DNA of 64,000 nucleotides from Candidatus Eiseniibacteriota bacterium (GCA_043815815.1 JBDRIO010000003.1:28360-92359); one strand, 5' to 3'. Shown: positions 32,485 to 56,154, counted from the first letter of the stretch. Notes: a model not told the origin generated them from the sequence alone. Program-made: numbers and translations.

Positions 32485-33510
32485 TCAGCGGACCTTGACG
32501 ACCCTGGCGCGGGCCGTCCCGCCGCGCTCCGCGACGAGCCTCGCGAAGTAGATGCCGGGTGCGCAGTCGTTCCCGTCGGTGTCCCTGCCGTTCCAGACGA
32601 CCTCGTGCTCGCCTCCGCCCATCACGCGGTCCGCGAGAACGGCGACGCGGCGTCCGGCCACGTCGAAGAGCTCAAGGGAAGCGTGGGACGGCGAGGGCAG
32701 CACGAACGAGAGCCGCGTGCCCGCGCTGAACGGATTCGGCGAGGGAGGAAGGAGCGAGAGCCCCGACACGTCATCGAACTCGGGGACGTCCGCCGACATC
32801 GCTCCCAGGAAGGCCGCCTGCAGAACCTTGTTCTTGATGGAGAGGTCGCCGTAGGGCTGCGGGCTCGGGTTCGTGCCTCCCGCCTGCTGCACCCAGCACG
32901 CGACGCCCATCTTCGCGTAGTCCCACGAGGGGTCCAGAGCGAAGGCCTTCTGTATGTCGACCTTCTCCCCCGCCCCGAGGGTCAGGGCATCGCCGGACGT
33001 TGACGTCATGTATGCGACGGCGTGGTACGGAAGGTGGGACTGTCCGCCGCCGTACGCCGCCACGTACTCGTCGAGCGTGGCGACCATGCAGAACCGGGCG
33101 TCGGTGACCGCCTGCTCTGCCTCTATGTGAGCCGTGAAGTCACCCACGCCGTTCTCGATGAGCGAGATCGTGAGCGGGGACGATTCGGCCGCGTGCGCCT
33201 GGTAGTCGACCTCGAGCCAGGAGAAGGGCCAGACGTCCGAGACGCCGTTCCCGGCCGCGGTCGGCATGGCGGTGATGTCGTAGTAGTTCGTGCGAGGGGT
33301 CCAGTAGAGGTCCCCGGACGTGTGCTGAACCAGAACGACTTCGTTTCGAGTGTGGGTCTGCTGCCAATCATCGACCGCAACTGCGGCCGCAGGGCAGGAG
33401 CTTCACCACACCGCCGTGAAGTGTTCATACAGAACGGTCCTCGTGGCGCCGCCCGCGGCACCTGCGAGGACGAGAGTGACAAAGGTGAGCACAACGAGAA
33501 GCCTGGACAC
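32485..33510 (-). CDS. Secreted thioredoxin-like (Omp28-related-type N-terminal motif) protein with a T9SS C-terminal domain; one in-frame TGA (33405..33403) in a W-[TGA]-S-S-C-P motif
   Basis: The track lists only 32485..33267. The same frame is open up to GTG 33510 (GGAGG 5 nt upstream) apart from one TGA. It reads MSRLLVVLTFVTLVLAGAAGGATRTVLYEHFTAVW-[TGA]-SSCPAAAVAVDDWQQTHTRNEVVLVQHTSGDLYWTPRTNYYDITAMPTAAGNG.... The CTD is ...PSPNPFSAGTRLSFVLPSPSHASLELFDVAGRRVAVL...GIYFARLVAERGGTARARVVKVR*. Confidence 0.65.
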
Positions 33511-36650: not shown

Positions 36651-36750
36651 AGGTCCGCAGGCCTCACTCCGTGAAGTGCTCTCCGGGGTTCGGGAGCCTG
36701 AGGTCCGCGGGCCTCACTCCGCGAAGTACTCCCCGGGGTTCGGGAGCCTC
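36651..36750. repeat. 50-bp tandem duplication covering the 3' end of gene 36714..37961
   Basis: 36651..36700 and 36701..36750 differ at about 5 positions. The upstream copy holds the real stop (...RLPNPGEYFAE*). The downstream copy would encode ...RLPNPGEHFTE*. Confidence 0.9.
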
Positions 36751-37961
36751 ACGCGGCGTTCGTCGGCGGCGGCGAGCAGTCCTGCGAAGTCTACGCCGTC
36801 GCGGAGGGCCAGCTCGGAGGCGTCCTTGAGATAGCGCGCCCACGCCAGGTCGTCCGGCGTCTTCTCCGCGTGCCTCGGGTACTGCGCGCCGCTCCGGGCG
36901 AGCTCGCGGTCCAGGAACCACTCAACGGCGACCCTGGCGAACTCGGTGTACGCGACCCCCGTGGGCTTCGTGGCAGCGACGGTGCCGTCCTCGTTCAGCG
37001 AGAACCGTTCGGCCTCGGCGAGGAGCGCCTCCACGCGCTCCACTGCCCGCACGGGCGCGTCACCGGCGAGTCCGCTCGCCTCTTCGAGCATGGCCCTGGC
37101 CCGCCGAAGAGAACTGACGAGTTCAGCGTGCCTCGTGGGCCGCGGGATCTCCGAGACCGACTCGGCGATGTCGCCGGCCGACGCCAGAAGCTCGCCGACG
37201 CGTGACTGGCGGATCCTCCGTTCGAGGACCTCGACCGCTCCGGAGGAGAGAACGAAGTCCCCGTCGATGCCGTCTCGCAGCGACCGGGCAAGGTCAATGC
37301 GCCCGCTGTCCAGAGCCGCGTGCACCAGATGGACCCTTTCGAGATCCCTGGCGTTCGCCTCCGACATCGAGGACATCTCGGCGACCGACAGGGGCACGAG
37401 GACGGACTCGCCCACCTCCAGCTCTCGCAGCCCGTTCATGTCCGTGAGCGCGTCCCATGCCGCGTAGACCTCCGGGCCGTCGCGCGGGACGTCCGTCGGG
37501 GTCACGCCTCTCCGAGCCGCGGCCAGGTCGACCGCCAGGCTCCAGAGGCTCTCCCCCGGAAGGGCCACGGTCGTCCTGTGGGCTGCCAGGACCGCGCCCC
37601 CATCGTCGAACTCGAGCACGTCGGGCTCGCCTCCGAGCAGCCGGTCGCGCGCGGCCTCCGTGTCACGGGCCGTCCTCATCGCGCGCCTGACGCCCGAGAG
37701 TTCGGACGCGTACTGGCGTCCCGGCTCGACCTTCTCGGCGGTCTTGAGATAGCGGATCGCCAGGGCGAACTCCTCGCCCTCGAGCGAGGCCAATGCCAGA
37801 GCGTGCCATTCCGCGGCCGTCTTCCCCGCGTAGCGCGGCGCAGCGGCCTCGGGGGACGCGGGAGGTCGGCTACCCCCTCCGCCCACGACCGCGGGTATCG
37901 CGAGGCCAAGTGCCACGAGGAGCGCGGGAAGCGCCAGCGTTGCTCTCCTCAGGTGTCTCAT
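36714..37961 (-). CDS. Secreted hypothetical protein (possible LysM-like segment)
   Basis: Start trimmed to ATG 37961 (GGGGGAGA upstream), giving the signal peptide MRHLRRATLALPALLVALGLAIPAVVG. The GESLWSLAVDL...LRELEVGESVLVPL stretch resembles a LysM pattern. Confidence 0.6.
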   Translation of the reverse strand: MRHLRRATLALPALLVALGLAIPAVVGGGGSRPPASPEAAAPRYAGKTAAEWHALALASLEGEEFALAIRYLKTAEKVEPGRQYASELSGVRRAMRTARDTEAARDRLLGGEPDVLEFDDGGAVLAAHRTTVALPGESLWSLAVDLAAARRGVTPTDVPRDGPEVYAAWDALTDMNGLRELEVGESVLVPLSVAEMSSMSEANARDLERVHLVHAALDSGRIDLARSLRDGIDGDFVLSSGAVEVLERRIRQSRVGELLASAGDIAESVSEIPRPTRHAELVSSLRRARAMLEEASGLAGDAPVRAVERVEALLAEAERFSLNEDGTVAATKPTGVAYTEFARVAVEWFLDRELARSGAQYPRHAEKTPDDLAWARYLKDASELALRDGVDFAGLLAAADERRVRLPNPGEYFAE

Positions 37962-38151
37962 CGTCTCCCCCTCTCGTCCCCTTCCGGACGGGCCGGACAC
38001 TGCGTCCGGCCTCCTGTCCAACGGACGTACGGGAAGCCCGATCTCTTCCCAGAGGAGAGGGGCCGAAGCGATGCTCCGGCCCCTCTCGTCATCATGCACG
38101 CGCTTCGCCAGCGTCCGCGCGTCGGCGTCGATCCAGACGCCGACCCCGGTG

Positions 38152-39504
38152 CTACTCGAGGTCGACCCAATCTCCGAGGTCTTCGGGGTCGACCCTCGTG
38201 ACCTCGAACAGCGTCGCGATGAGCGAGCCGTCCTTGCCGGCGCGCTCCTGGCTCACGAACTCCCACACGATGCGGCCGTCGGGCGCTACCTCGAAGGCGC
38301 GTCCGTAGTCGGACTCGGTGACGAGCGTGTTGCCGTTCTCGAGCCTATAGCTCGCGCCGCACATCTGGCTGTAGAAGGGCTCGCTGTCCTTGCCGTAGTA
38401 GCTCCACGCGACTTCGAACGTCAGGGGGTCGAACTCGACGACCTTCGACTGACCGCCGTATCCCTTGTTGTCGAAGAGCAGCATGTTGCCGTTGGGAAGC
38501 ATCTTCGGGTCGTGCTGTTGCCTCCACATGCCGGACGCTATCCATGCGACCTGCTCGTATTCCATGTCGACGATCGCGATGAGGTTGAGCTGCCGCATGG
38601 AGACGAGGACGTTCCCCTTTCTGAACGCGGGGTGCCGGTCCTCGAGCATGCCGTCCAGAACCCGGATCGCATTCGTGTGGAACAGGTCACCGGTCTTGCC
38701 CATGCCGTACACGAATGGCGCGTTCTCGTAGCGCGAGTCCAGGAACGCGGCCAGGACCGACACGCTCCTGAGCTCATTGCCGTTCGCGTCGAGGATCGTG
38801 ATGAAGTCCTCGAGCACGGGCTGCACGGTGTTGACGCTCGGGACGATGTGAGCCTTCCTCGTGAGGACGTAGATCCGCCCGTCGTCCATGGCGTGGAGCG
38901 CGTGATGCTCGCTTCCCGCGTGGGCCCACAGAAGCCTCGAGTCCTTGTCGACCTTGATGAGCCCCAGACCCTCGAAGATGGCCAGCACGTCTCCGTTCTC
39001 GAAGAGCTTCGCGTATCGCCAGTACTCGGCTCCGTCGTTCTTGGACGCCGCGAGCGAGTCGGGAAACGCCTTGAGAAACGGGAACTCCCACTCGTGCAGG
39101 ATGTCCCCGTCCATCGTCATGAGAGCGGCGCCCGCGTGGTGCCCCGAGTTGTAGAAGTTGAGTCCGGGCTGCGCCGAGTCCATGTCGTAGACCGTGATGC
39201 CGGTCGCCTCCGGCGCGGGGTTCGTTCCGCTCAGATACCCGATGGACCGGAGGCGCTCCACCTCCGCTCGCTGCGCGGCCGTCATCCCGGTGTGACCCAG
39301 GGACGGCCTCGCCCGACGCCACCGTCCCGACGGACCCATGGTGCTGGATCCCGCGGCCGGGTCGTTGTCGAATCTGCGCTGCGAGAGAGAGACGTCCGGC
39401 GTTCCGACGACGAGGACGGCGGCGAGGATCAGCAGCAACCGACCTCCCGACGCCCCGGCGGACCACCTCGGCCGCGAGGTCTGCAACCTGGCACTCTTAG
39501 GCAA
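38152..39504 (-). CDS. Membrane-anchored arylsulfotransferase(ASST)-like beta-propeller protein, paralogue A1
   Basis: TTG start at 39504 (GGAGG 6 nt upstream) with an N-terminal TM segment. Motifs are GRWR, AEVERLRSIGYLSG, YNSGHHAGAALMTMDGDILHEW, EHHALHAMDDGRIYVL, FHTNAIRVLDG, QHDPKMLPNGNMLLFDN and LENGNTLVTESDYGRAFEV. Confidence 0.6.
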   Translation of the reverse strand: MPKSARLQTSRPRWSAGASGGRLLLILAAVLVVGTPDVSLSQRRFDNDPAAGSSTMGPSGRWRRARPSLGHTGMTAAQRAEVERLRSIGYLSGTNPAPEATGITVYDMDSAQPGLNFYNSGHHAGAALMTMDGDILHEWEFPFLKAFPDSLAASKNDGAEYWRYAKLFENGDVLAIFEGLGLIKVDKDSRLLWAHAGSEHHALHAMDDGRIYVLTRKAHIVPSVNTVQPVLEDFITILDANGNELRSVSVLAAFLDSRYENAPFVYGMGKTGDLFHTNAIRVLDGMLEDRHPAFRKGNVLVSMRQLNLIAIVDMEYEQVAWIASGMWRQQHDPKMLPNGNMLLFDNKGYGGQSKVVEFDPLTFEVAWSYYGKDSEPFYSQMCGASYRLENGNTLVTESDYGRAFEVAPDGRIVWEFVSQERAGKDGSLIATLFEVTRVDPEDLGDWVDLE

Positions 39505-39516
39505 ACCCTACCTCCG

Positions 39517-40872
39517 TTATCTGTCGCCCGCGAGCCACCCGGCTCCGAAGTCGAGCGGGAGACGCCTCATCTCGAAGATGGTGGCTATGAGTTCTCCCTC
39601 TCCGCCCGCCCTGGCCGGGTTCAGGTACTCCCACACGACGTCGCCGTCGGGAGTGACCTCGAGAGCCCTGCCGTAGTCGGACTCGGTTATCAGCGTGTTC
39701 CCGTTCGGGAGCCTGCTCGCTGCGCCGCACATGCCCGTGTAGAGCGGGTCGTCGTCCTCGCCCAGATACGCCCACGTGATCCCCTGCGTCGCCGGGTTGA
39801 ACTCGAGCACCTTCGAAAGGCCGGCCTGTCCCTTGTTGTCGAAGAGCATGATGTTCCCGTTCGCGAGCACCTTCGAATCGTGCTGGGCCCTCCACATGCC
39901 CGAGCCGGACCAGATGACGGCCTCGCGCTCCATGTCGATGATCGCGATCATGTCTATCTGCCGCATCGACACCAGCACGTTACCCTTCTCATACGGCGGC
40001 ATGCGCTTCGAGAAGCGGCCGTCCATGACGTCGACGGCATTGGTGTGAAGGAGATCTCCGACTCTGCGCATGCCGTGAACCGTGAGCGCAGTCGAGAAGT
40101 ACGAGTTCTCGAACGCGTCGAGCACCGAGACGCTGCGCAGGACCTTCCCGTTGGAGCTCAGGATCGTGATGAAGTCCTCGAGAACCGGCGCGGTCGAATT
40201 GATCCTGGGAATGAGATGAGCCTTCCGGGTGAGAACGTATATGCGGCCGTCGTCCATGACCTGGAGCGCGTGGTGCTCGCCTCCGGCGTGCGCCCAGATG
40301 AGCCTCGAGTTCCTGTCGACCTTGATGAGCCCCAAGCCCTCGAATATGGCCAGCGCGTCCCCGTTCTCGAAGACGTGGACATATCTCCAGAAGTCCGCGC
40401 TCTCGTTGTTCTCCGCCGCCCTCACCGAGTCCGGGAATGCCCTGAGGAACGGAAACTCCCACTCGTGCAGGACGCGTCCGTCCATAGTCGCGAGGATCGC
40501 GCCCGCGTGATGCCCCGAGTTGTACAGGTTGAGGCCGGGCTGAACGCGGTCGGGGATGTGGACGGTGACGCCGGACCTCCCGGGCGCAGGCGTGGTGCCG
40601 CTCAAGTACCCGATCGAGCGGAGCCGCTCCACTTCCTCTCTCTGGGCGTCCGACATGACGCTCGACCTGTCAGTGGGCTTGAGCGTTCGCCAGCGCCCCG
40701 TCGGGGCGATCTCGTGGAGCGTCCTCCCGGAGTCCACGCCCTGGCGACTGCTCTGAGCGACCGAGGACGTCTCACCCGCTCCGACCATGCAGAGGATAAG
40801 CACGAGGAACACACCCCGGAAGGCCATTCCCCGCGGCGAACGCGCACACAGGTTGTCGTTGTCGCGACGCAA
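39517..40872 (-). CDS. ASST-like beta-propeller protein, paralogue A2
   Basis: TTG start at 40872 (AGGAGG 5 nt upstream). It has the same motif series as A1 (EEVERLRSIGYLSG ... QHDSKVLANGNIMLFDN). Confidence 0.6.
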   Translation of the reverse strand: MRRDNDNLCARSPRGMAFRGVFLVLILCMVGAGETSSVAQSSRQGVDSGRTLHEIAPTGRWRTLKPTDRSSVMSDAQREEVERLRSIGYLSGTTPAPGRSGVTVHIPDRVQPGLNLYNSGHHAGAILATMDGRVLHEWEFPFLRAFPDSVRAAENNESADFWRYVHVFENGDALAIFEGLGLIKVDRNSRLIWAHAGGEHHALQVMDDGRIYVLTRKAHLIPRINSTAPVLEDFITILSSNGKVLRSVSVLDAFENSYFSTALTVHGMRRVGDLLHTNAVDVMDGRFSKRMPPYEKGNVLVSMRQIDMIAIIDMEREAVIWSGSGMWRAQHDSKVLANGNIMLFDNKGQAGLSKVLEFNPATQGITWAYLGEDDDPLYTGMCGAASRLPNGNTLITESDYGRALEVTPDGDVVWEYLNPARAGGEGELIATIFEMRRLPLDFGAGWLAGDR

Positions 40873-40884
40873 ACGCTGCCTCCT

Positions 40885-42198
40885 CTACTCGTCGACGGCG
40901 AGCCAGTCGAGAGGGAAGTCGGCGGGCAGTCTCGTCATTTCGAAGATGGTGGCGATGAACCTGCCGTCCTCGCCGGCGCGCTCGGGGTTCAGGTACTCCC
41001 AAACGATCGAGCCGTCCTGCGTCACCTCTATGGCCCGTCCTCTGTCCGACTCGGTCGCGAGCGTGTTGCCGTTCGGCAACCTCTGCACGGTGCCGCACGT
41101 CAGGGAGAAGAAGAGCGCGGGCACCTCTCCGACGTACGTCCACACGACGTCGCCGCTCCGGGGATCGAACTCGATCAGACGCGACTTCTCCTCGTACCCC
41201 TTGTTGTCGAAGAGAAGCACCGTGCCACCGGGCAACACGGACGGGTCGTGCTGCGAACGCCATTCACCGCGCGTCGCCCACGTGATCTCCCCGATCTCCA
41301 TGTCGAGGATCGCCAACAGATTGGGAATGCGCAGAGACAGGAGGATGCTCCCCTTGCGGAACTCCGGAACGCCGTCGACCATACCGTCCTCGAGCAGGAC
41401 CATCGCGTTCGTGTGGAAGATGTCGCCGTAGATCTGGATCTCGTCCAGCACGTAGGCGTACTCGGAACGCAGGAGTCCGTCGAGGACGGAGAAGCTCAAG
41501 ATCTCGTTGCCGTCCGGGCCGAGCACGACGACGAAGTCCTCCAGGATGGGCGCGCCGGGCCTCACCTTCGTCGACGTCGTGGCGACGCGCGAGAGCGAGT
41601 AGATGCTGCCGTCGTCGGCCACCTGGACCTCGTGATGCTCGCCCCCGAGCCTGGCCCAGAGAACGTTCGAGTCCTTGTCCAGCTTCGCCAGCCCGTAGCC
41701 CTCGAATATCACGAGAACGTCGCCGTTCTCGAAGAGGTACGCCGAGCGCCAGTACTCCGAGTTGTCGTTCAGGTACTCCCCCGCCATCCCGGGCCAGACG
41801 TCGAGGAAACCCGCGGACCACTCGTGCAGAACGTCGCCGTCCATGTCCAGGAGCGCGGCTCCGGGACGGTGACCCGACGAAAAGAAGTTGAGCCCTGCGT
41901 AGACGGCGTCCTTCTCGTGAACGGTGACGCCCATGCGGTTCGGAGCCTCGACCGATCCGGTGAGATATCCGATGGAACGCAGGCGCTCCAACTCCGCGCG
42001 CTGCTCGTCCGTCAGCTCCTCGTCCGACTCGATGTCATCGATCGAGCGCCAGCGGCCGGGGTAGCTCTTCGAGATATGCTCGCCGGCCTTGAAGACGTTG
42101 TCCGCCTCCTCGCCCGCCGCGGGGGCGGGCGGAAGGAGAACAAGGAGCGCGGCAAGCGTGATAAGCAGGTGTGCGCCGGAGCGCATGCGCGACGACAC
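40885..42198 (-). CDS. ASST-like beta-propeller protein, paralogue A3
   Basis: Start trimmed to GTG 42198 (GGAGG 6 nt upstream) or ATG 42186, giving the signal/anchor segment MRSGAHLLITLAALLVLL. It has the same motif series (AELERLRSIGYLTG ... QHDPSVLPGGTVLLFDN). Confidence 0.6.
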   Translation of the reverse strand: MSSRMRSGAHLLITLAALLVLLPPAPAAGEEADNVFKAGEHISKSYPGRWRSIDDIESDEELTDEQRAELERLRSIGYLTGSVEAPNRMGVTVHEKDAVYAGLNFFSSGHRPGAALLDMDGDVLHEWSAGFLDVWPGMAGEYLNDNSEYWRSAYLFENGDVLVIFEGYGLAKLDKDSNVLWARLGGEHHEVQVADDGSIYSLSRVATTSTKVRPGAPILEDFVVVLGPDGNEILSFSVLDGLLRSEYAYVLDEIQIYGDIFHTNAMVLLEDGMVDGVPEFRKGSILLSLRIPNLLAILDMEIGEITWATRGEWRSQHDPSVLPGGTVLLFDNKGYEEKSRLIEFDPRSGDVVWTYVGEVPALFFSLTCGTVQRLPNGNTLATESDRGRAIEVTQDGSIVWEYLNPERAGEDGRFIATIFEMTRLPADFPLDWLAVDE

Positions 42199-42327
42199 TC
42201 GTGACCTCCGTGGGCTTTTGGGAGCGGCCTGCCGGACCCGGGCGTTCTCCCGGACCGACGCCGCCCCGAAGTCGAATGCGGCTTCAGAGAGTGCAACGGG
42301 AGCGGCGCTTACGTCCGCTCCTGTACG

Positions 42328-42356
42328 AATATAGCACGACGGACGAGCGGCTTCAA
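42328..42356 (-). promoter_or_regulatory. Sigma70-type promoter of the A3-A2-A1 triad
   Basis: The minus strand reads TTGAAG (42356..42351), a 17-nt spacer, then TATATT (42333..42328). Confidence 0.6.
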
Positions 42357-42461
42357 CCGACGCGCCCGCAGGGCCCGGAGGGCGGCGCCAATCGACGGCG
42401 CGCAGGGGCCCCGCGCGGGGGCACCCCGACCCGCTCGGCCCGCCCTCTCCGGCCGGGCGAG

Positions 42462-42491
42462 TTGACACCGCATCGCTCCAGGGGATAGCAT
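42462..42491 (+). promoter_or_regulatory. Sigma70-type promoter of the Kelch/ABC operon (divergent from the previous promoter)
   Basis: TTGACA (42462..42467), a 17/18-nt spacer, then ATAGCAT (42485..42491). Confidence 0.5.
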
Positions 42492-42569
42492 GACGCATCT
42501 CAGGCACAATGGAAGACCGCGTTCAGGGACACATCTCGTTCCAGAGTCTCGCTCCAGAGGAGGAGAAAC

Positions 42570-43514
42570 GTGAACAGGAGAGACGTCAAGCGAACCGGGA
42601 TCGCGACGGCCTGCGCTGTCGCAGCCGTGATGCTCGCAACGCTCGCAGGCTGTTCGTCCAGCACGTCCCCGTCCGCCATCGTCGACTGGTTCCTGGACGC
42701 GACGTGGGAGACGCTCGCCGACTTCCCTAACGGGAGCTACCACGGCGCCGCACTCGAGTACGACGGCGACGACTCCGTATACGCTCTCCGGGGGTGGGAC
42801 GCGCCCGACGGCGAGCAGTTCTGGAGGTACGACATCTCCACGGACGACTGGACGCGTCTCGGCGACGCGCCCTTCAGCGCGTTCTGGGCGGCCTCGCTCG
42901 CATACACCGGCGGCGACAACCTGTACGCCTTCCAGGGCAACGGAACGGAGGCCTTCTACAGGTACACGATATCGACGGACGTCTGGGACCGGATGGCTGA
43001 CTACGTGGAGACCGGGGTCCGACGCACCGGGCGGAGCCTCGCGTGGCCCGGGGGCGGAGATTACGTCTACGGGATAAAGGGAAACGGCGAAGCCGTCTTC
43101 GCGCGGTACAGCATCGGCGGGGACCAGTGGGAGTACCTCTCCCCCGTGCCCGAGCCGGTCCAGTTCGGCGGATCGCTGAGCTGGGGAGGCGGGTCGCGGC
43201 TGTTCGCAACGGCAGGGGACACGAGCTTCTACAGGTACAGCATCGGAAGCGACGCGTGGAGTGCGGCCGCCCCGCTGCCCGGCGCGATCCACTACGGCAG
43301 CTCTCTCTGCTACGATGGCGAGGGGTCGCTCTTCATGGTCCAGGGCGACACGATGGCCGGATTCTGGCGCTACGACATCCCGGAGGACCGGTGGGAGACC
43401 CTCGAAGACACGCCCGTCGAGGTCCGCCCGGGCGGAGCCGTCGCGTCCGACGGCGGCGCGGTCTACGCGTTCCCCGGAGGAGGCTCCACCGACTTCTGGG
43501 CGTTCAGGCCATAG
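42570..43514 (+). CDS. Kelch-repeat beta-propeller lipoprotein
   Basis: GTG start at 42570 follows GGAGGAGAAAC. It has a lipobox (LATLAGC). Six blades share the pattern F[WY]RY(D/S/T)I..D.W....P. Confidence 0.75.
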   Translation: MNRRDVKRTGIATACAVAAVMLATLAGCSSSTSPSAIVDWFLDATWETLADFPNGSYHGAALEYDGDDSVYALRGWDAPDGEQFWRYDISTDDWTRLGDAPFSAFWAASLAYTGGDNLYAFQGNGTEAFYRYTISTDVWDRMADYVETGVRRTGRSLAWPGGGDYVYGIKGNGEAVFARYSIGGDQWEYLSPVPEPVQFGGSLSWGGGSRLFATAGDTSFYRYSIGSDAWSAAAPLPGAIHYGSSLCYDGEGSLFMVQGDTMAGFWRYDIPEDRWETLEDTPVEVRPGGAVASDGGAVYAFPGGGSTDFWAFRP

Positions 43515-43526
43515 AGGAGGCACCAC

Positions 43527-44777
43527 GTGCGTAGACGCTTCACACTGACCGTTCTCTTCGTAGCGCTCGCCGCCACGGTCGGCGGCTGCGGCGGCGAGAG
43601 CGGAGGCGACATCGAGCTCGTGTTCGCCGCGGGCAACGATCCGTCGGGCGCGACCGAAGCGCTCATCGACGAGTACAACGCGGCGCACCCGGGAGTCACG
43701 GTCCGGTTCCAGGCGATGCCGGCTAACACCGACACCCAGCACGACGCCTACGTGACCTACCTCTCCGCCCGCGAGTCGAACATCGATCTCTACAGCCTCG
43801 ACGTCATATGGACCGCGGAGTTCGCCAAGGCCGGATGGATCACCGAGCTCCCGGACGGGTTCCTGAACGCCGACGAGTTCCTGAGCGGGCCCCTCGAGAG
43901 CGTGACCTACGAGGGCCGTCCGCACGCGGTCCCCTGGTTCACGGACGCCGGGGTCCTCTACTACAGAAGAGACCTTCTGGAAGAGGCGGGGCGTCCGGTC
44001 CCTGAGACGTGGGACGAGTTCGTGGCCACGTGCAAGGCGGTCGTCGTCGAGCCGGACATGGACGGGTTCGTCTGGCAGGGGGCAAGATACGAGGGGCTCG
44101 TCTGCGACTTCCTCGAGTTCCTGTGGGGCATGGGCGGGACTCTCGACGCGGAAGCCCTCGCCGCCGACCCGGAGGGCTCGAGGCGGAACATCGAGGCGAC
44201 GCTCGACAGGATGCGCTCTCTCATGGACGAGGGCGTGACTCCCGAGAGCGTCCTGACCTACAAGGAGGAGGACTCGAGACGCGTGTTCACCGAGGGTCAC
44301 GCGCTCTTCCTGCGCAACTGGCCGTACGCCTGGAGCATGGCGGAGGGCGCCGAGTCCAAGGTGAAGGGCGCCGTGGGCATAGCCCCCCTCGCCCACGCCC
44401 CGGGGCAGACCGCCTACTCGACGATCGGCGGCTGGAACGTGGCCGTGTCGGCCTACACCGAGCATCCGGACGAGGCGCTCGAGTTCCTGCGCTTCATCAC
44501 GGGAGAGAAGTCTCTGAAGGAACGGGCCATCGCCGGCGCGTACCTCCCCACGAGGAAGAGCATCTACGAGGACGCGGACGTGCTGGCGGCGAATCCTCAC
44601 TTCGCGAGCTTCTTCGATGTCTTCCAGTACACGCGCAACCGTCCCCGCTCGCCGCACTACCCGAGGGCCTCCGACGTCATCCAGGAGCAGGTCCACGGCG
44701 CCCTCGCGGGTGAGAGGGACCCGGGCGAGGCGGCGGCCACGATCGTTGCCGAGCTTTCGCGAATACTGACCGACTGA
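43527..44777 (+). CDS. Sugar ABC transporter substrate-binding lipoprotein (family 1 SBP)
   Basis: 416 aa with a lipobox (TVGGCGG). It has the general maltose/trehalose-type SBP pattern. Confidence 0.8.
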   Translation: MRRRFTLTVLFVALAATVGGCGGESGGDIELVFAAGNDPSGATEALIDEYNAAHPGVTVRFQAMPANTDTQHDAYVTYLSARESNIDLYSLDVIWTAEFAKAGWITELPDGFLNADEFLSGPLESVTYEGRPHAVPWFTDAGVLYYRRDLLEEAGRPVPETWDEFVATCKAVVVEPDMDGFVWQGARYEGLVCDFLEFLWGMGGTLDAEALAADPEGSRRNIEATLDRMRSLMDEGVTPESVLTYKEEDSRRVFTEGHALFLRNWPYAWSMAEGAESKVKGAVGIAPLAHAPGQTAYSTIGGWNVAVSAYTEHPDEALEFLRFITGEKSLKERAIAGAYLPTRKSIYEDADVLAANPHFASFFDVFQYTRNRPRSPHYPRASDVIQEQVHGALAGERDPGEAAATIVAELSRILTD

Positions 44778-44800
44778 GACGGTTCGACGACGGGAGCCGG

Positions 44801-45676
44801 ATGAACAGAGAACAGAACCGCCGGTTGGCCGCGTGGATGCTGGCGCCGGCGCTCACGTTCATCGTCGTCGTCGGCGCCTTCCCCGTGCTGAGCCAGTTCG
44901 TGCTCTCGTTCGCGGAGTTCAACCTCAAGTTCGTCGAGGAGCGGAGCTTCGTGGGCCTCGGCAATTTCGCCAGGCTCGCGACGGACGCGATCTTCTGGCG
45001 TGACCTCTGGCACACCGCCTACTTCACTGTCGTCTCGGTCGGGCTGGAGCTGGTGCTCGGCCTGGCCGCGGCGCTCCTTCTGAACCGGATCCGCTTCGGT
45101 CGGACCGCCGCCACGTCGGCGGTCATCATGCCGTGGGCACTCCCGACGGTCGTCGCCGCCACGATGTGGTCACTCATCCTGAACGACCGCATAGGCCTCG
45201 TGAACTCGCTGTTGTCGCGCGTCGGGCTCCTGCGCGAGCCGATCGTCTGGCTCGGACCCAGGCTCGCGATGACGTCCGTGATCCTCGCGGACGTGTGGAA
45301 GACGACGCCGTACGTCGCGATCATCCTCCTGGCGGGACTGAAGTCGATACCTTCGCACTACTACGAGGCGGCGTCACTCGACGGCGCCGGCTGGTGGCAG
45401 TCGTTCAAGGCCATCACCTTCCCGCTCCTGCGTCCGTTCATCGCCGTGGCGCTTCTCTTCCGCGTGATGGACGCCTTCCGGATCTTCGACCTCGTCTGGA
45501 TACTGACGGGCGGGGCCTCGGGGACGGAGACGGTCTCCGTGTACATCTACAAGACGCTCTTCAGGTACGCCGACATGGGTTACGGGTCGGCGATGACGGT
45601 CGCGCTCTTCGGCATCGTCTTTGTGCTGAGTCTGGGACTGGTGCGGTTCATGAAGGTCACCGCGGAGGCGCGATGA
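44801..45676 (+). CDS. Sugar ABC transporter permease (MalF-like)
   Basis: 291 aa. The EAA loop is YEAASLDGAGWWQSFKAITFPLLRP. Confidence 0.85.
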   Translation: MNREQNRRLAAWMLAPALTFIVVVGAFPVLSQFVLSFAEFNLKFVEERSFVGLGNFARLATDAIFWRDLWHTAYFTVVSVGLELVLGLAAALLLNRIRFGRTAATSAVIMPWALPTVVAATMWSLILNDRIGLVNSLLSRVGLLREPIVWLGPRLAMTSVILADVWKTTPYVAIILLAGLKSIPSHYYEAASLDGAGWWQSFKAITFPLLRPFIAVALLFRVMDAFRIFDLVWILTGGASGTETVSVYIYKTLFRYADMGYGSAMTVALFGIVFVLSLGLVRFMKVTAEAR

Positions 45677-46500
45677 GCGGGCGCGGCTTCGCGAAGGGAG
45701 GGACGTGGGCGCTGCGGGCGCTCATCGTCGTCGTGTGTCTCATCCCGCTCTACTGGATAGCCAACGTCAGCCTCTCCCACCCGTCGGCGCTCTACAAGAC
45801 GCCGCTCGACTACTTCCCCACGCCCCCGACGATCGACAACTTCAGGGCGGTCTTCGAGGTCAACCAGTTCCCGGGGAACGTGGCGAACAGCTTCGTGGTC
45901 GCCGCTCTCACGACGCTCCTGACGCTCGCGCTCGGCTCGCCGGCGGCCTACGCGCTCTCCAGGCTCAAGGTCAGGCGGAAGAACGCGATCATGGCCCTCT
46001 TCCTCGGCGTCGCCATATTCCCGGCCATCGGAATGGTCGGCCCGCTCTACGTCGCAATGGCCAGGCTCGGACTGATCAATAAGTACCCGGCGCTCGTCAT
46101 CCCATACACCCTCCTGACGATGCCGCTCGCGGTGTGGATCCTGACGCAGTTCTTCTCGACGCTGCCTGACAGTCTGGAGGACGCAGCGCTCATCGACGGC
46201 TGCACGCCCGTTCAGGCGTTCGTCAGGGTGATACTGCCTCTCTCGGCGCCCGGTCTCTTCACCGCGGCGATACTGATCTTCATCTGGGCGTGGAACGAGT
46301 TCCTCTTCGCGCTCATCATGACCTCGACGCCGGAGTCGCGAACGGTCCCCGTGGCGCTCGCGCTCTTCGCGGGACTCCACGAGCTTCCGTGGGCCACGAT
46401 CGCGGCCGCCACGGTCGTGAGCGTCGTGCCGGTGCTCGTTCTGGTCATTCTGTTCCAGAGGAGGATCGTGGAGGGCTTGACGAGCGGCGTGGAGAAGTGA
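45673..46500 (+). CDS. Sugar ABC transporter permease (MalG-like)
   Basis: ATG 45673 overlaps the previous stop (ATGA). The EAA loop is EDAALIDGCTPVQAFVRVILPLSAP. Confidence 0.85.
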   Translation: MSGRGFAKGGTWALRALIVVVCLIPLYWIANVSLSHPSALYKTPLDYFPTPPTIDNFRAVFEVNQFPGNVANSFVVAALTTLLTLALGSPAAYALSRLKVRRKNAIMALFLGVAIFPAIGMVGPLYVAMARLGLINKYPALVIPYTLLTMPLAVWILTQFFSTLPDSLEDAALIDGCTPVQAFVRVILPLSAPGLFTAAILIFIWAWNEFLFALIMTSTPESRTVPVALALFAGLHELPWATIAAATVVSVVPVLVLVILFQRRIVEGLTSGVEK

Positions 46501-46560
46501 GCGACGCAAACCGCCGCCCGTTCGCTCTCGTCCGGCAGACCGGTGACTCGGGGTCGAACG

Positions 46561-47949
46561 TCAGGGCCCGTCCGCGCTCATCCACTCCAGGGGGAATCCC
46601 GGGTCGAGCCTGACGATCTCGAACAACGTTGCCACGTACTCGCCGTCGTCTCCAGCGCGGTACGGACTGACGAACTCCCACACGATGGCTCCGTCCGGAG
46701 TGACCTCGATCGCGCGGCCGTTGTCCGACTCGGTCAAGAGCGTGTTGCCGTTCGGAAGGCGTTGATTCGAGCCGCACGACGACGTGTAGAAGAGCGCGCT
46801 TTCGCTGCCCTCGTACCTCCAGAAGACTTCCTGAGACAGCGGGTCGAGTTCGACGGAACTCGACGCTCCGGGGTGGGCCTCGTTGTCGAAGACGAGCATG
46901 CGCCCGTTCGGGAGCATCGTCGGCTGATGCTGCTGACGCCACCGCCCCGCCAGCGCCCACGGGACCGTCTCGCCATCGAGGTCGACGACCGCGACCGTGT
47001 CCAGCATGAGGATGGAGATGAGCACGTTCCCTCGCGCGAACGCCGGCGACGAACTCTCGAGCGTGCCGTCCAGGACCTCGAGCGTGTTCGTGTGGAAGAT
47101 GTCGCCGGGCTCGCGCACGCGTCTGAGGAGCGGCTCGAAGTCCGAACGCTCCAGCGCCTTCAGTATCGAGACCCTGCGGACGAGTTCGCCCTCGGGGCTC
47201 AGCGCGGCGATGAAGTCCTCCAGCACGGGAAACTCGTCGTGGAACCGCGGAACGATCCTGGGCTCGCGCTCGAGAACGAGTATCGTCCCGTCCTCGAGGA
47301 CGTCGAGGTCGTGGTGGCAGAACCCGTCGTACACCCACAGCAGCTTCGACTCGCTGTCGAGTTTGATGAGCCCCAGTCCCTCGAAGATGGCCAGCACGTC
47401 GCCGTTGGGGTACAGGTGAGCCCGTCTCCAGAAGTGCTGGCTCTCCTCGCCCCGCGGGAGCACCCGGCCCGGCCAGACGTCCTCGAAGCTCCGGGCCCAC
47501 CTGTGGAGCACGCGCCCGTCCATGTCGGCGAGCAGCGCCTCGGGCGCGTGCCCCGAGACGACGAAGTTCAGGCCCTCGAACGCGGACGCCGCGTCGTGAA
47601 CGGTCACTCCGGCGTCGGCGCCCGCCGGGACGGAGCCGCCGACGTATCCGAGCGCCATCAGGCGCTCGACCTCCGCGAGCTGCTCGTCGCTGAGTTCCGC
47701 GTCGGCCAGCTCGCCGCGGACCGGCCGCCACCGCCCCGGGGCGACCTCGCGCTGACCTGCCCGGCCCTCAAGGCGCCTCGCGATGGAGGTCAACTGCCTG
47801 TACGGGAACGCGCGGGTCCGGACCACGAATACACCGGAGGCGAACCCGACGCCGAACACGACGAGCGCCAGGAGCACCACGCCGACGACGCGTCGCGCTC
47901 TGCGCGGCCGGTGGCCGGCCCCCTCGTTCCTGCCTGCGTCTGCTCGCAT
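46561..47949 (-). CDS. ASST-like beta-propeller protein, paralogue B1
   Basis: Start trimmed to ATG 47949 (GAGG upstream; 10 nt after the B2 stop), followed by a TM anchor. Motifs are FPY, GRWR, AEVERLMALGYVGG, CHHDLDVLEDGTILVL, FHTNTLEVLDG and QHQPTMLPNGRMLVFDNE. Confidence 0.6.
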   Translation of the reverse strand: MRADAGRNEGAGHRPRRARRVVGVVLLALVVFGVGFASGVFVVRTRAFPYRQLTSIARRLEGRAGQREVAPGRWRPVRGELADAELSDEQLAEVERLMALGYVGGSVPAGADAGVTVHDAASAFEGLNFVVSGHAPEALLADMDGRVLHRWARSFEDVWPGRVLPRGEESQHFWRRAHLYPNGDVLAIFEGLGLIKLDSESKLLWVYDGFCHHDLDVLEDGTILVLEREPRIVPRFHDEFPVLEDFIAALSPEGELVRRVSILKALERSDFEPLLRRVREPGDIFHTNTLEVLDGTLESSSPAFARGNVLISILMLDTVAVVDLDGETVPWALAGRWRQQHQPTMLPNGRMLVFDNEAHPGASSSVELDPLSQEVFWRYEGSESALFYTSSCGSNQRLPNGNTLLTESDNGRAIEVTPDGAIVWEFVSPYRAGDDGEYVATLFEIVRLDPGFPLEWMSADGP

Positions 47950-47959
47950 CAAGCGCACC

Positions 47960-49408
47960 TCACTTCGCGGCCCGCGCCCAGTCGATGGGGGTGTCGGGCG
48001 ACAGCCGCACCATCTCGTAGAGCGAGGCAATGAGTTCGTCGTTCTGGCCCGCGCGCATCGGGTTCACGAACTCCCAGACGATCCCGCCGTCCGGCGTGAC
48101 CTCGATGGCGCGCCCGTTGTCGCTCTCGGTGATGAGCGTGTTGCCGTTGGGAAGCCTCTGACAGGATCCGGACGCCTGCGAGTAGAGCCCGCCGGGCGCG
48201 TTGCCGTCGTACGACCAGCGCACGTCCTGCGTCAGGGGGTCGAACTCCACCACCTCCGAGATCGCCTCTCCCCTGGCGTCCGTCCCCGCCTCGTTGTTGA
48301 AGAGGAGCATCCGACCGTCCGGAAGAAACGTCGGCTGGTGCTGTCGGTCCCACCGACCGACGAGCGCCCAGACCACGGAGCCCGCCTCCATGTCGATCAC
48401 GGCGATCGTGTCGACCTCACGAAGGGAGACGAGCACGTTGCCTCGCCGAAACGCGGGACTCGCGTCGGCGAACGTCCCGTCCAGGACCTCCAGCGTGTTC
48501 GTGTGAAGGATGTCGCCCCACTCGGGCATGGCGCGAAGAACCGGCGCGTAGTCCGAGTTCTCGAACGCCTGGAGGAGGGACAGGCGCATCCTGGGCGAGC
48601 CGTCCGGGTCGAGCACTGCTATGAAGTCCTCTGACACCGGCTGTCGCTCGTGCACGCGTGGTACCAGCCGGAGTTCGTGTTCCAGAACGTAGATGGTGCC
48701 GTCGTCCAAGACGTCGAGATCGTGGTGGTTGCCGTGAAGACGAGACCAGATGAGTCGGGAGTCGCTGTCGAGCTTCACAAGCCCCAGGTAGTCGTAGATG
48801 GCGAGGAGCTCCCCGTTCTCGAGGAGCCGCGCCCTGCGCCAGACCTGGCCCGCAGGGTCCTGGACGGGGCCGTCGTAGTCCGGCCAGACGTCCAGGAACC
48901 CGAGGGTCCAGCTATGGAGGACGTTCCCGTCCATGTCGAGCAGGAAGGCCTCGGGACCGTGCCCGGAGGTGTACATGTTGTACCCGTCGTACGCCTTCCG
49001 CACGTCACGGTGGGTGACACCTCCCTCGCCGGAGGCGGGCTTCGAGCCGGCCAGGTAGCCGAGCGTCATGAGCTCGCGGAGCTCCGCCTCTTCCTCGGGC
49101 GTGAGAGCCCGGACCTGCGCCGGGCCGCGCGCCTCGCTCCAGCGTCCGGACGGCTTGTCGCGGACCTCGCTCTCGATGCGTCCGGCGCCGCGTCGCAGGG
49201 AGCTCGTGACCGTGTGCGCTAGTTCGTAGGGGAAGATCCCCGTACGCACCACCAGCGTTCCGTAGGCGGTCCCCAGCCCGAACGCCACAAGCAGGACGAC
49301 GATTCGCGCGAGCGCGCGGGCGGGACCTCCTCCGCGACCCGCGACGACCCCTCGCCCGCGGCCTGGCGCCGCTCCGAATGCGGAGCCGACTCCGGGGAGA
49401 ACGCTCAC
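47960..49408 (-). CDS. ASST-like beta-propeller protein, paralogue B2
   Basis: GTG 49408 overlaps the B3 stop (GTGA). It has a TM anchor (IVVLLVAFGLGTAYGTLVV) and the same motif series. The remainder of the 916-aa track ORF is off-frame overlap with B3. Confidence 0.6.
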   Translation of the reverse strand: MSVLPGVGSAFGAAPGRGRGVVAGRGGGPARALARIVVLLVAFGLGTAYGTLVVRTGIFPYELAHTVTSSLRRGAGRIESEVRDKPSGRWSEARGPAQVRALTPEEEAELRELMTLGYLAGSKPASGEGGVTHRDVRKAYDGYNMYTSGHGPEAFLLDMDGNVLHSWTLGFLDVWPDYDGPVQDPAGQVWRRARLLENGELLAIYDYLGLVKLDSDSRLIWSRLHGNHHDLDVLDDGTIYVLEHELRLVPRVHERQPVSEDFIAVLDPDGSPRMRLSLLQAFENSDYAPVLRAMPEWGDILHTNTLEVLDGTFADASPAFRRGNVLVSLREVDTIAVIDMEAGSVVWALVGRWDRQHQPTFLPDGRMLLFNNEAGTDARGEAISEVVEFDPLTQDVRWSYDGNAPGGLYSQASGSCQRLPNGNTLITESDNGRAIEVTPDGGIVWEFVNPMRAGQNDELIASLYEMVRLSPDTPIDWARAAK

Positions 49409-50808
49409 ATGCCCTCCCCGAGCCAGCCGGCCCCGAAGGACTCGGGCAACCTGACGGCCTCCAGCAGCGTGGCGATGAGTTCGCCGTCCTCTCCGGCCCT
49501 GAAGGGGCTCACGAACTCCCACACGATCGTCCCGCCGGGGGTCACCTCGAGCGCGCGCCCGTTGTCGGACTCGGTGATGAGGGTGTTGCCGTTGGGCAAC
49601 CTCTGACAGGAACCACAGGTCTCGCTGTAGAGCGGACGCCCGGCGGTGCCGGAGTAGGTCCAGAAGGTCGTCTGCGTGAACGGGTCCAGTTCGACGACCG
49701 AGGACCCCCTCGGGCCCGTGGGCGCGCCGCCCGCAGCGACCGGACCTGCCTCGTTGTTGAAGACCATGAGGTGCCCGTTCCCGAGCACGGTCGGCTGATG
49801 CTGCCGGCTCCAGCGCCCGGTCAGCGCCCAGACGACCTCCTCGGACTCCATATCGACGACCACCACAGCCTCTATGTTGCGGACACAGAGCAGCACGTTG
49901 CCGGCACGGAACGCCGGGGACACGTGCGCCAGACTTCCGTCCAGGACCTCTATCGTGTTCGTGTGGAAGACGTCCCCGGCCTCCGGCGTCCTCTGGAGCA
50001 GCGGCGCGTACGGCGACCGCTCGAACGCCTCGAGGAGCGACACGCGGCGCAGCAACCTGCCGTCCGGGCTCAGAACGGACACGCAATCGACGAGGACCGG
50101 CCGGTTCTCGCTGAACCTGGAGATGACGCCCGCTTCCTGCTCGAGCGCGTAGATGAGTCCGTCCTCCGTCACGCACAGGTCGTGGTGGCACGCTCCCGGG
50201 TACGACCAGAGCAGATTCGAACGCGCGTCCAGCTTGACGAGGCCCAGCCTGTCGTATATCGCGAGGAGGTCGCCGTTCGGAAAGACGTGCGCGCGCCGCC
50301 AGAACTGCGCGTCCCGATCGTCGCGCGCCCCCGACGCGTCGGGCCACACGTCGAAGAAGTCGTACGACCACCTGTGCAACACGCGCCCCTCCATGTCGAC
50401 GAGGAGCGCCACGGGGCCGTGCCCCGACACGATGAGGTTCACCCCGGGCAGGGCCGACTCCCGGTCGTGCGCGGTGACGCCTGCCACCGCGGGGGTCGGT
50501 CGCGAGCCGGACGTGTGCCCGAGGGCCATGAGCCGTTCTACCTCGGCCCGTTGGTCGTCCGAGAGCCCGCTCGGACGGTCGTCCGCGCGCCAGGCGCGGA
50601 ACCGACCCGGGACGGCATCGGACGCCGTGGTCGACCCTCTGCCGCTCAGGAGCGACCGCGCGGCGGCCAGCTGTGGATAGGGGAAGACACCCCGGCGACC
50701 GGTCGGCCACCCGTACACGAAGCCGCAGACGAAGACGAGGACGACCAGGACGACGAAGCGCAGGGGCCTTCGCCGACCGCCGGCTCGCTGCCTCTGCGCC
50801 GCTGTCAT
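49405..50808 (-). CDS. ASST-like beta-propeller protein, paralogue B3
   Basis: Start trimmed to ATG 50808 (AGGAGAGGG upstream). It has a TM anchor (FVVLVVLVFVCGFVYG) and the same motif series. Confidence 0.6.
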   Translation of the reverse strand: MTAAQRQRAGGRRRPLRFVVLVVLVFVCGFVYGWPTGRRGVFPYPQLAAARSLLSGRGSTTASDAVPGRFRAWRADDRPSGLSDDQRAEVERLMALGHTSGSRPTPAVAGVTAHDRESALPGVNLIVSGHGPVALLVDMEGRVLHRWSYDFFDVWPDASGARDDRDAQFWRRAHVFPNGDLLAIYDRLGLVKLDARSNLLWSYPGACHHDLCVTEDGLIYALEQEAGVISRFSENRPVLVDCVSVLSPDGRLLRRVSLLEAFERSPYAPLLQRTPEAGDVFHTNTIEVLDGSLAHVSPAFRAGNVLLCVRNIEAVVVVDMESEEVVWALTGRWSRQHQPTVLGNGHLMVFNNEAGPVAAGGAPTGPRGSSVVELDPFTQTTFWTYSGTAGRPLYSETCGSCQRLPNGNTLITESDNGRALEVTPGGTIVWEFVSPFRAGEDGELIATLLEAVRLPESFGAGWLGEGM

Positions 50809-51070: not shown

Positions 51071-52117
51071 ATGCGAACTCAATCAAAGAGCGCCTGGTCC
51101 ACCGTCGCGCCCGCCGCGGGCGCGGGGTTCGTCGTGCTCGTCCTTGCGACACAACTCCTCGCCAGCACGGTCTTCGTGTCATCGGACGGCCTGGGAGACT
51201 ACCCCGACATCCAGGCCGCGATCGACGCCGTGCCCGACAGCAGCACGGTCTATCTGCTGCAGGGCACGTACACGGGCTACGGCAACCGCGGCGTCGTGCT
51301 CAGCGGGAAGAACGTGTCCCTTCTCGTCTTCGGGCCGCCGGGCTCCGCGGTCATCGACTGCCAGGGCGGCGACAGAGCCCTCGAGGTCGGCGCGGGCGTC
51401 GACTCCACGTCGGTCATAGACGGTATCACGTTCCGGAACGGAAACGCGCGGAGCGGGAGCGGTGGCGCCGTCTACTGTGAGAGCGGGGGACCGAAGATCC
51501 TGAACTGCTCGTTCGCCGACAACTCCGCCACGTACGGCGGGGCCCTGCGGTCGAACGGCGAGCCGGCGCCCATCGTCAGAGGGTGCGTCTTCACCGGCAA
51601 CAGCGGGGTCTACGGAGGCGCGATCGACGCGAGGGAGGTCGCGATCCGGGTGGAGAACTCGACCTTCACCGGCAACTCCGCAAGCCGCGGAGGAGCCATG
51701 AACTTCTTCGACTCCTCCCCCACGATCTCGAACTGCACGATGTGCATGAACTCCGCGGACTTCGGAGCGGCCGTGAAGCTGGACCAGAGCTCTGCGCTGA
51801 TCGTGCGATGCATCGTGGCGCTCAACCGAACGAACGAGGCACTGTACGGTGAGGAGAGCTCAGAGACGAGTTACTCGTGCGTGTTCGGGAACGCGGACGG
51901 CGACGAGGTCGACGGCAACGCCCACCACAACTCTACGGTCGATCCTCTCCTCTGTGACGCCGAGGGTGGTGACTATCACCTGTGCTCGAACTCCTATTGC
52001 CTGCCCTCAGGTAACCCGTGGAGCGTCCACATAGGACACCAGGCCCAGGGTTGCGCGAGCTGTATGTCCCCCGTGAGTGAGATGTCCTGGGGCGCTCTCA
52101 AGGCCCGCTACCGCTGA
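51071..52117 (+). CDS. Secreted right-handed parallel beta-helix repeat protein with the C-terminal tag
   Basis: 348 aa with an N-terminal signal/anchor segment. It has repeated GGA(V/L/I/M)-type turns (SGGAVYC, YGGALRS, YGGAIDA, RGGAMNF). The tail is ...GCASCMSPVSEMSWGALKARYR*. Confidence 0.75.
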   Translation: MRTQSKSAWSTVAPAAGAGFVVLVLATQLLASTVFVSSDGLGDYPDIQAAIDAVPDSSTVYLLQGTYTGYGNRGVVLSGKNVSLLVFGPPGSAVIDCQGGDRALEVGAGVDSTSVIDGITFRNGNARSGSGGAVYCESGGPKILNCSFADNSATYGGALRSNGEPAPIVRGCVFTGNSGVYGGAIDAREVAIRVENSTFTGNSASRGGAMNFFDSSPTISNCTMCMNSADFGAAVKLDQSSALIVRCIVALNRTNEALYGEESSETSYSCVFGNADGDEVDGNAHHNSTVDPLLCDAEGGDYHLCSNSYCLPSGNPWSVHIGHQAQGCASCMSPVSEMSWGALKARYR

Positions 52118-52265: not shown

Positions 52266-52436
52266 CAGCCCCGCGTCGTCAGCGCCCCCGCGTCTCCGCG
52301 AGCGCTCAGCCTGGTTCCTCCGTCTGAGCTGGCTTGATTCTCGCTACCCTCTCTCTCACCGCAAGCTCGCATGGAACGAGCACTTCATGCGCGACGCGCA
52401 TAAGCTGTGACACGTCGTCCTGTACGCAGAAGACGC

Positions 52437-52465
52437 TTGACAACTTTCATGCTCGCGCCTATACT
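52437..52465 (+). promoter_or_regulatory. Sigma70-type promoter
   Basis: TTGACA (52437..52442), a 17-nt spacer, then TATACT (52460..52465). Confidence 0.65.
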
Positions 52466-52492
52466 CCGCGCAACTTGAGCCCGGGAGTGCCC

Positions 52493-56033: not shown

Positions 56034-56154
56034 GTCGTGCAGGCGCAGCCCGGCCGCCGGGGTTCGCGGAGCGGCACCGATCGTCGCGTCCCCACGCGGT
56101 GTGAGGTCGCGGCACGTGGCGCGTGCGGCACCGCTGACGCGATGGGGAGCCGTG

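Follow-up and report, generated by a model that had tools for sequence, protein, structure and literature searches.

For most bacterial arylsulfotransferases (ASSTs) that work independently of 3'-phosphoadenosine-5'-phosphosulfate (PAPS), neither the acceptors used in nature nor the physiological role is known, as stated in a 2026 review. The roles of the active-site residues are described for AssT, including the sulfuryl-carrying His436 (PMC13426309). Cpz4, from caprazamycin biosynthesis in Streptomyces sp. MK730-62F2, is also PAPS-independent and sulfates a sugar hydroxyl (PMC13426309). In the Rv3035-FecB-AftB system of Mycobacterium tuberculosis, a periplasmic propeller works physically with a glycosyltransferase of the AftB type, which belongs to the GT-C class (PMC13041763). 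Here we describe six ASST-like beta-propeller genes in a metagenome-assembled genome (MAG) of Candidatus Eisenbacteria, an uncultured soil bacterium. The window, the whole stretch of DNA analyzed, is 64,000 nucleotides long with a G+C content of ~67%. The six genes all lie on its minus strand and form two tight triads, which run in the order A3-A2-A1 (38152-42198) and B3-B2-B1 (46561-50808). The open reading frames were found where the initial annotation had placed them.

The initial annotation assigned these genes to the ASST family from sequence motifs, and the searches bear this assignment out. All six proteins score 81-96 bits against PF14269 (Arylsulfotran_2; cut-off 27): A1 (38152-39504) 83.1 bits, A2 (39517-40872) 89.4 bits, A3 (40885-42198) 81.3 bits, B1 (46561-47949) 91.6 bits, B2 (47960-49408) 96.1 bits and B3 (49405-50808) 87.8 bits. 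Five of the six also match PF05935 (Arylsulfotrans) at 37-45 bits, with a cut-off of 24.2, and A3 falls below it at 20.2 bits. Weak PQQ_2/BamB-like Pfam matches are present among the six proteins as well, and no model matched in the NCBIfam scan. A phmmer search of A1 against the PDB sequences gave no match; a family profile built from 36 sequences was needed to reach Cpz4, its sole match in the PDB (E 3e-5, with QHD aligned). The AlphaFold2 model of A1 has a mean predicted local distance difference test (pLDDT) score of 84 and a predicted template modeling (pTM) score of 0.79, and the propeller is mostly above 90. A Foldseek search with this model ranked Cpz4 (9KF4 and 9KF6) first and second (E 4e-16, TM 0.56), followed by designer propellers and then, at ranks 8-16, by AssT (3ELQ, E 5e-11), the next natural enzyme. 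Thus the six proteins did not fall into another propeller family lacking the catalytic histidines of ASSTs. A1 is 100% identical across 95% of its length to an Eisenbacteria protein at NCBI named "arylsulfotransferase family protein", whose start codon was placed 22 codons farther downstream. The six genes are new members of an already auto-annotated family.

Of the AssT catalytic residues, His356, Asn358 and His436 map to near-invariant positions; the mapping of His252 and Thr501 is tentative, and the Arg374 equivalent varies. We aligned the family profile with E. coli AssT (assT of strain CFT073) and with the AssT family using hhalign, and only the C-terminal half aligned with confidence. 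In this half, the block FHTN...S.R...QH aligns with AHVN...SSR...TQH of AssT, so that His276 and Asn278 of A1 correspond to AssT His356 and Asn358, and Arg304 corresponds to Arg374. His331 in the Q-H motif of A1 corresponds to His463 of AssT in precursor numbering, which is the mature nucleophile His436, and its equivalent is present in all six copies. His201 of A1 aligns with AssT His252 only tentatively, in a forced, extended alignment of low confidence. The equivalent of Arg374 is kept in five of the six copies and is Leu in B1, whose signature reads HHNLHC with the Leu at this position. Conservation was scored in the 150 best representatives, mutually at most 50% identical, and in a second set of 93 copies from related loci. 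Among the 150 representatives, His201 is kept in 149, His276 in 150, Asn278 in 148 and His331 in 149, and the same four positions are kept in 91-93 of the 93 locus copies.

The six proteins share one order of parts: an export signal, a disordered stalk of ~40 residues, modeled with low confidence, containing G-R-W, a short helix that ends in L-G-Y, and the propeller. We define the LGY-stalk ASST branch by two elements that separate the export signal from the propeller, the G-R-W and an E..L.x(L/I)(G/P)Y helix; all six proteins agree with this definition, B3 with LGH. The motif stretches are located, all on the minus strand, at 39226-39264 in A1 (AEVERLRSIGYLSG), 40597-40635 in A2, 41956-41994 in A3, 47635-47673 in B1, 49046-49084 in B2 and 50506-50544 in B3. 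When the motif was searched as a regular expression in the six frames of the window, it matched solely in the six ASST genes. The Tyr of L(G/P)Y is kept in 148 of the 150 representatives, on par with the catalytic histidines, and in A1 the helix is predicted at residues 76-86 with a pLDDT of ~72. The other motifs listed in the initial annotation as shared (GRW/GRF, E..ERL..LGY..G, SGH, LH.W, HH, FHTN, QH(D/Q), FDN/FNN and LPNGNTL.TESD.GRA.EV) all appear in the alignment. A3 has GRWR and the LGY helix, and B3 has FPY, GRFR, and LGH instead of LGY. The restriction of FPY to the B copies also agrees with the alignment. An N-terminal transmembrane (TM) anchor had been proposed for all six. This part stands for B1-B3, in which an uncharged stretch of 19-23 residues (20 in B3) is bracketed by Arg and followed by FPY, but not for A1-A3, in which the hydrophobic core of 12-14 residues is typical of cleavable signal peptides. 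Because positive charge lies ahead of the hydrophobic segment in all six proteins, the propellers should face outward in the predicted topology.

Cpz4, the best structural match, resembles the six proteins in its size (~460 residues) and in having no AssT-type N-terminal sandwich, and its S-x-R and W-Q-H-D align with theirs. However, the identity is only 18%, and the Cpz4 pathway is a cytoplasmic antibiotic synthesis with a dedicated aryl-sulfate donor from a type III polyketide synthase. Unlike Cpz4, the six proteins have the GRW/LGY stalk and a predicted export signal or anchor, and their genes stand in arrays with no sign of a biosynthetic cluster nearby. E. coli AssT (3ELQ, 3ETS and 3ETT; PF05935 and PF17425) is likewise an extracytoplasmic beta-propeller, and its His436, His356 and Asn358, tentatively His252 and, mostly, Arg374 have conserved equivalents in the family of the six proteins. 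The identity is 13%, and the Thr501 position is, tentatively, Cys in the LGY-stalk family. AssT has its own features, namely the N-terminal beta-sandwich PF17425, the soluble periplasmic dimer and the adjacent dsbL/dsbI needed for a disulfide close to the active site, and none of these is found in the six proteins. PF17425 has no match in any of the six, though all AssT homologues contain it. In CFT073, assT adjoins dsbL and dsbI; no Dsb gene was found among the neighbors in the window, which places the six genes outside the enterobacterial AssT type (MF_00933).

Beyond Eisenbacteria, the branch is large and has recurrent partners. It contains 3,307 clusters (50% identity) at E <1e-30 and 15,571 at E <1e-3, and it occurs in at least 10 phyla, including Planctomycetota, Acidobacteriota, Myxococcota, Hydrogenedentota, Nitrospirota, Verrucomicrobiota, KSB1 and Calditrichota, mostly as single-copy genes outside Eisenbacteria. 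We clustered the neighbors in 78 related loci (numbered with the prefix L below) and counted partners within 5 kb. A polytopic membrane protein without a Pfam match is found in 15 of the 78 loci; it is a GT-C glycosyltransferase by sequence because its profile matches the mycobacterial arabinofuranosyltransferase AftB (9DLF, E 5e-31 in the PDB). A sulfatase-family (PF00884) gene is also found in 15 of the 78. Both partners are often direct, co-oriented neighbors of the ASST gene, and in L022 and L056 the order is sulfatase, GT-C, ASST. The ASST-linked "sulfatases" have Thr at the nucleophile position (WTxPS, TTPSH; DT(L/T/V)RAD) and are not formylglycine enzymes. Sixteen of 26 sulfatase-like proteins end in E..L.xLGY, within 12 residues of the C-terminus, matching the stalk motif of the ASSTs, while canonical CxPxR sulfatases at the same loci do not have the LGY tail. 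Thr-type PF00884 reading frames that end in E..L.xLGY(V/L/I) were seen in L013, L019, L022, L030, L046, L049, L050, L056, L062, L070 and L073.

In addition to this clustering, the ASST domain is found covalently fused to such partners. Ten AftB-like-GT-C::ASST fusions, with the ASST domain at the C-terminus, are present among the best 150 representatives, together with PMT_2::ASST, GT87-PMT_2-TPR::ASST (TPR, tetratricopeptide repeat) and Phosphodiest::ASST fusions, and every fusion keeps GRW/LGY and the catalytic residues. Overall, a GT-C and/or an LGY-tailed sulfatase is linked in 24 of the 78 loci, and at least 14 of the 150 representatives are covalently fused. No other evidence says as much about function as the association with GT-C and LGY-tailed sulfatases, which was absent from the initial annotation. 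Literature searches covering PF14269, 9KF4/9KF6, Eisenbacteria ASSTs and GT-C/ASST fusions turned up no account of the branch; the LGY-stalk branch is an undescribed architectural variant of the ASST family. Separately, six proteins (P0262, P0347, P0352, P0367, P0368 and P0389) share a recurrent N-terminal fusion domain of ~300-400 residues with a segment '...RALSAVGRAGRNPV..LY.L...', and the three of them that were scanned (P0262, P0352 and P0368) gave no Pfam match in this domain.

On balance, we favor the reading that the six proteins are exported and catalytically competent and belong to the Arylsulfotran_2 branch of the PAPS-independent ASST superfamily, with glycans as the more likely acceptors, judging from their sequences, the A1 model and the analogy with the characterized enzymes. 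In this scheme, the proteins would be exported by a cleavable-looking signal (A1-A3) or held by a type-II membrane anchor (B1-B3), and the central face of the propeller would present His-His, His-x-Asn, in most copies Arg, and Gln-His. By analogy with AssT, the Gln-His histidine (His331 in A1) would be sulfated by a sulfate-ester donor, giving a sulfohistidine intermediate, and the sulfuryl group would then pass to the hydroxyl of an acceptor; this transfer would take place outside the cytoplasm, where no PAPS is available. The genes would be expressed from two translationally coupled operons, with the A operon divergently promoted from a sugar ABC (ATP-binding cassette) importer, and the six copies may differ in acceptor or donor specificity. 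Because, in other phyla, the branch is fused to GT-C enzymes and shares operons with these and with Thr-type enzymes of the alkaline phosphatase superfamily, sugars on envelope or extracellular glycoconjugates or on oligosaccharides seem more likely acceptors than free xenobiotic phenols, although this is a weaker point than the enzymatic assignment. For the branch as a whole, the best-supported reading is that it works alongside lipid-linked-sugar glycosyltransferases and Thr-type phospho- or sulfo-ester enzymes, all of them able to act outside the cytoplasm without nucleotide-activated donors. The family, the fold, the conserved catalytic residues, the operon structure, the synteny and the fusions are shown by the analysis; the topology, the sulfuryl-transfer chemistry and the glycan acceptors are inferred. 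The GT-C fusions, the operons with Thr-type enzymes and the shared LGY Tyr give a testable handle on the role of ASSTs in free-living bacteria, and this handle points to a PAPS-free compartment in which glycoconjugates of the surface or envelope are modified. The window itself yields a more modest result, a correctly guessed family with six copies in an Eisenbacteria genome.

Several observations weigh against the favored reading. At 13-18%, the identity to Cpz4 and AssT is low, and hhalign returned a probability of only 16-25% (E ~1e-3), so the mapping beyond the HxN...R...QH block is tentative. The equivalent of Arg374 is Leu in 21 of the 93 locus copies and in 28 of the 150 representatives, and AssT Thr501 aligns with Cys382 of A1 (Ser in B2), tentatively, in the forced extended alignment. 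No GT-C or LGY-sulfatase gene was found within 10 kb of the six genes or in ten syntenic loci of Eisenbacteria; the nearest GT-C gene (21321-24077) is 14 kb from the A operon. No sulfate-activation or sulfate-donor gene was found in the window. In addition, the Eisenbacteria synteny extends to unrelated genes (SPFH, methyltransferase), so the conserved gene order may reflect relatedness and not function. The glycan reading is thinner for the six Eisenbacteria genes than for the branch as a whole, because they have no nearby GT-C or LGY-sulfatase, their only conserved partner is the ABC importer, and the window holds no donor pathway.

The LGY motif occurs regardless of how the proteins are built, lying on the flexible stalk of the propeller, in the linkers of GT-C::ASST fusions and at the extreme C-terminus of the co-operonic Thr-type enzymes. 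This raised the idea that its Tyr is a phenolic partner of the ASST pocket, which would be sulfated and serve as an intramolecular plug, as a relay for the sulfuryl group or as a tag for substrates; we regard this as improbable but worth stating. If it were true, the LGY proteins would make up a periplasmic Tyr-sulfate-relay module, PAPS-free and not described before, that decorates envelope glycans, and this module would be spread over Planctomycetota, Acidobacteriota, Myxococcota, Eisenbacteria and other phyla.

The most serious rival to glycan acceptors is the classical role, in which the enzymes would shuffle sulfate among small free phenolics, such as lignin or humic phenols and soil aryl sulfates, in the periplasm or the medium, for detoxification or sulfur scavenging, with the paralogues broadening the substrate range. 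The characterized ASSTs all accept small phenols (PMC13426309), multi-copy arrays are typical for broad-substrate detoxification families, and the six genes of the window lack an adjacent GT-C or sulfatase-like partner. The adjoining importer could import the products. This importer, however, is of the sugar (CUT1) type and is not a sulfate or aromatic transporter. Moreover, the repeated covalent fusion to three GT-C families is hard to square with an enzyme for free phenols, and Cpz4, the nearest solved relative, prefers a sugar hydroxyl (PMC13426309). We consider the classical role rather unlikely, though it has to be taken seriously.

Another possibility is that the propellers are not sulfotransferases and serve as non-catalytic scaffold or acceptor-binding subunits for GT-C enzymes, as Rv3035 does with AftB. 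The fusions place the propeller at the periplasmic end of the GT-C, the usual site of acceptor-binding modules, a periplasmic propeller that bridges to AftB has a precedent (PMC13041763), and weak PQQ_2/BamB-like matches would fit such a role. An AftB homologue is the membrane or fusion partner of the LGY-stalk branch. In contrast to the six proteins, however, Rv3035 is an eight-bladed lipoprotein propeller of the PQQ/WD40-like type and is not ASST-like (PMC13041763); it has no ASST residues and is not fused to AftB, and the window contains no AftB homologue. The four AssT-type residues are 98.7-100% conserved in the 150 representatives, including every fusion, which is rarely so in pure scaffolds. 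Because this catalytic constellation is near-perfectly conserved, a pure scaffold is disfavored, and we judge it to be quite improbable.

The initial annotation further speculated that the enzymes sulfate or otherwise modify a conserved Tyr near the C-terminus of secreted tag proteins encoded in the window, which it described as nine proteins that nearly all end in an invariant Tyr. At least seven secreted proteins of the window carry a short tail, ...E(T/S)SWGxIKA(L/M)YR at the very C-terminus, with no TM segment; they are encoded at 13553-14029, 14046-14780 and 24023-25063 on the minus strand and at 25222-26091, 51071-52117, 56037-57527 and 57770-59071 on the plus strand. The Tyr of this tail is penultimate (...YR). 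The short tail was also found in L005-L008, L029 and L030, all Eisenbacteria-type loci, and a co-occurrence test found none in ASST loci from other phyla. Such a tail resembles a C-terminal tag for sorting or processing that is specific to Eisenbacteria and distinct from the C-terminal domains of the type IX secretion system (T9SS) type, and we know of no described family with an SWGxIKALYR-type tail. As for the proposed link, ASSTs can sulfate Tyr-containing peptides in vitro (PMC13426309), at least seven window proteins have the ...SWGxIKA(L/M)YR end, and B3 and the tagged gene at 51071-52117 are divergent neighbors. Yet B3 is the only ASST gene next to a tagged one, the tag is confined to Eisenbacteria-type loci while the ASST branch occurs in at least 10 phyla, and the Tyr is not the terminal residue. 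The link finds no support and is rejected by the co-occurrence test; modification of the tag Tyr by these enzymes is very unlikely.

Other tag proteins of the window, large and secreted, have FlgD_ig or Por_Secre_tail C-terminal domains (27105-31319, plus strand; 32485-33402, minus strand; 52334-55048, plus strand). Among them are a 1,404-residue Peptidase_C25 protein (gingipain/PorU-like) and a protein with multiple fibronectin type III domains and a purple-acid-phosphatase-N domain. The domain content of these proteins suggests a T9SS-like cargo system.

The weakest alternative, an assembly artefact or a decaying pseudogene array, has a negligible chance of being correct and is refuted by the divergence of the copies at the DNA level (only 60-79% identity), the six intact frames with a third-position G+C content of 0.85-0.89 in the five that were scored (the B2 frame was not among them), the retained catalytic residues and the orthologous copies at the same positions in other MAGs. 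The six genes are genuine paralogues, as originally proposed, and not collapsed or duplicated assembly: the DNA identity of 60-79% between copies extends over 200-266 nt, and the highest value is 88% over 80 nt. At the protein level, the six copies are 42-59% identical in the alignment, with A2 and A1 at 60% in the comparison made for the tree. The duplications had also been called old and retained, and this agrees with the finding that further Eisenbacteria genomes hold orthologues of A- and B-type copies in matching positions. In a rough neighbor-joining tree, combined with synteny from tblastn, the A copies belong to an Eisenbacteria-specific clade with 1-3 tandem genes per genome in ten genomes. 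A2 groups with A1 and L001 as a lineage-specific duplicate within the A1 lineage, the A1/A2 split is a younger duplication, and A3 has orthologues in L002, L004 and L010. The B copies are lineage-specific triplicates of one gene, which L002, L020 and L029 each have once in the equivalent location, and in the tree they are nearer to the copies of other phyla than the A copies are. The B1 orthologue in L002 (2763-4310) is 67% identical. Domain duplication is also intragenic, as the 853-residue protein P0241 contains two ASST propellers in tandem within one polypeptide.

Each triad looks like one translationally coupled operon, because the genes are separated by spacers of 10-12 nt with Shine-Dalgarno-like GGAGG or GAGG, or overlap at ATGTGA. 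Specifically, the A3/A2 spacer is 12 nt and contains AGGAGG, the A2/A1 spacer is 12 nt and contains GGAGG, and the B2/B1 spacer is 10 nt and contains GAGG; the GTG start of B2 overlaps the stop codon of B3 within ATGTGA. These junctions match those of the initial annotation. A3, the first gene of the A operon, starts with GTG 6 nt past a GGAGG. The spacer upstream of it (42199-42569) carries two divergent promoter-like sites. The first, TTGAAG-17-TATATT with a TG extension, is on the minus strand (42328-42356) ahead of the A operon, where it had been predicted, and the second, TTGACA-18-TAGCAT, is on the plus strand (42462-42491) ahead of the Kelch/ABC operon. In the 16-kb region, three promoter-like sites were seen versus 0.6 expected from shuffled sequence.

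The Kelch lipoprotein and the sugar ABC operon were both found on the plus strand between the triads, as annotated. The Kelch-repeat lipoprotein (42570-43514; Pfam Kelch_1/Kelch_6) has an LAGC lipobox and a weak, sub-threshold similarity to NanM/mutarotase, has no sequence relatives in the PDB and occurs elsewhere only in L002 by synteny. The CUT1-type sugar ABC importer operon (43527-46500) encodes a substrate-binding protein (43527-44777; SBP_bac_1) and two permeases (44801-45676 and 45673-46500; BPD_transp_1) without an ATPase gene, which resembles CUT1 importers that borrow a shared ATPase of the MsiK type. The A-type array is divergent from the same operon of one binding protein and two permeases in nine other Eisenbacteria genomes, and this divergent importer is the only conserved partner of the A-type ASSTs in Eisenbacteria. 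Directly downstream of A1 is a gene for a secreted LysM-like hypothetical protein (36714-38099, minus strand), which had no match in Pfam, NCBIfam or the PDB; it follows the A-type array in eight other Eisenbacteria loci and is probably co-transcribed as the last gene of the A operon. Farther away, the only GT-C of the window is a TMEM260-like protein O-mannosyltransferase with a long TPR array (21321-24077, minus strand).

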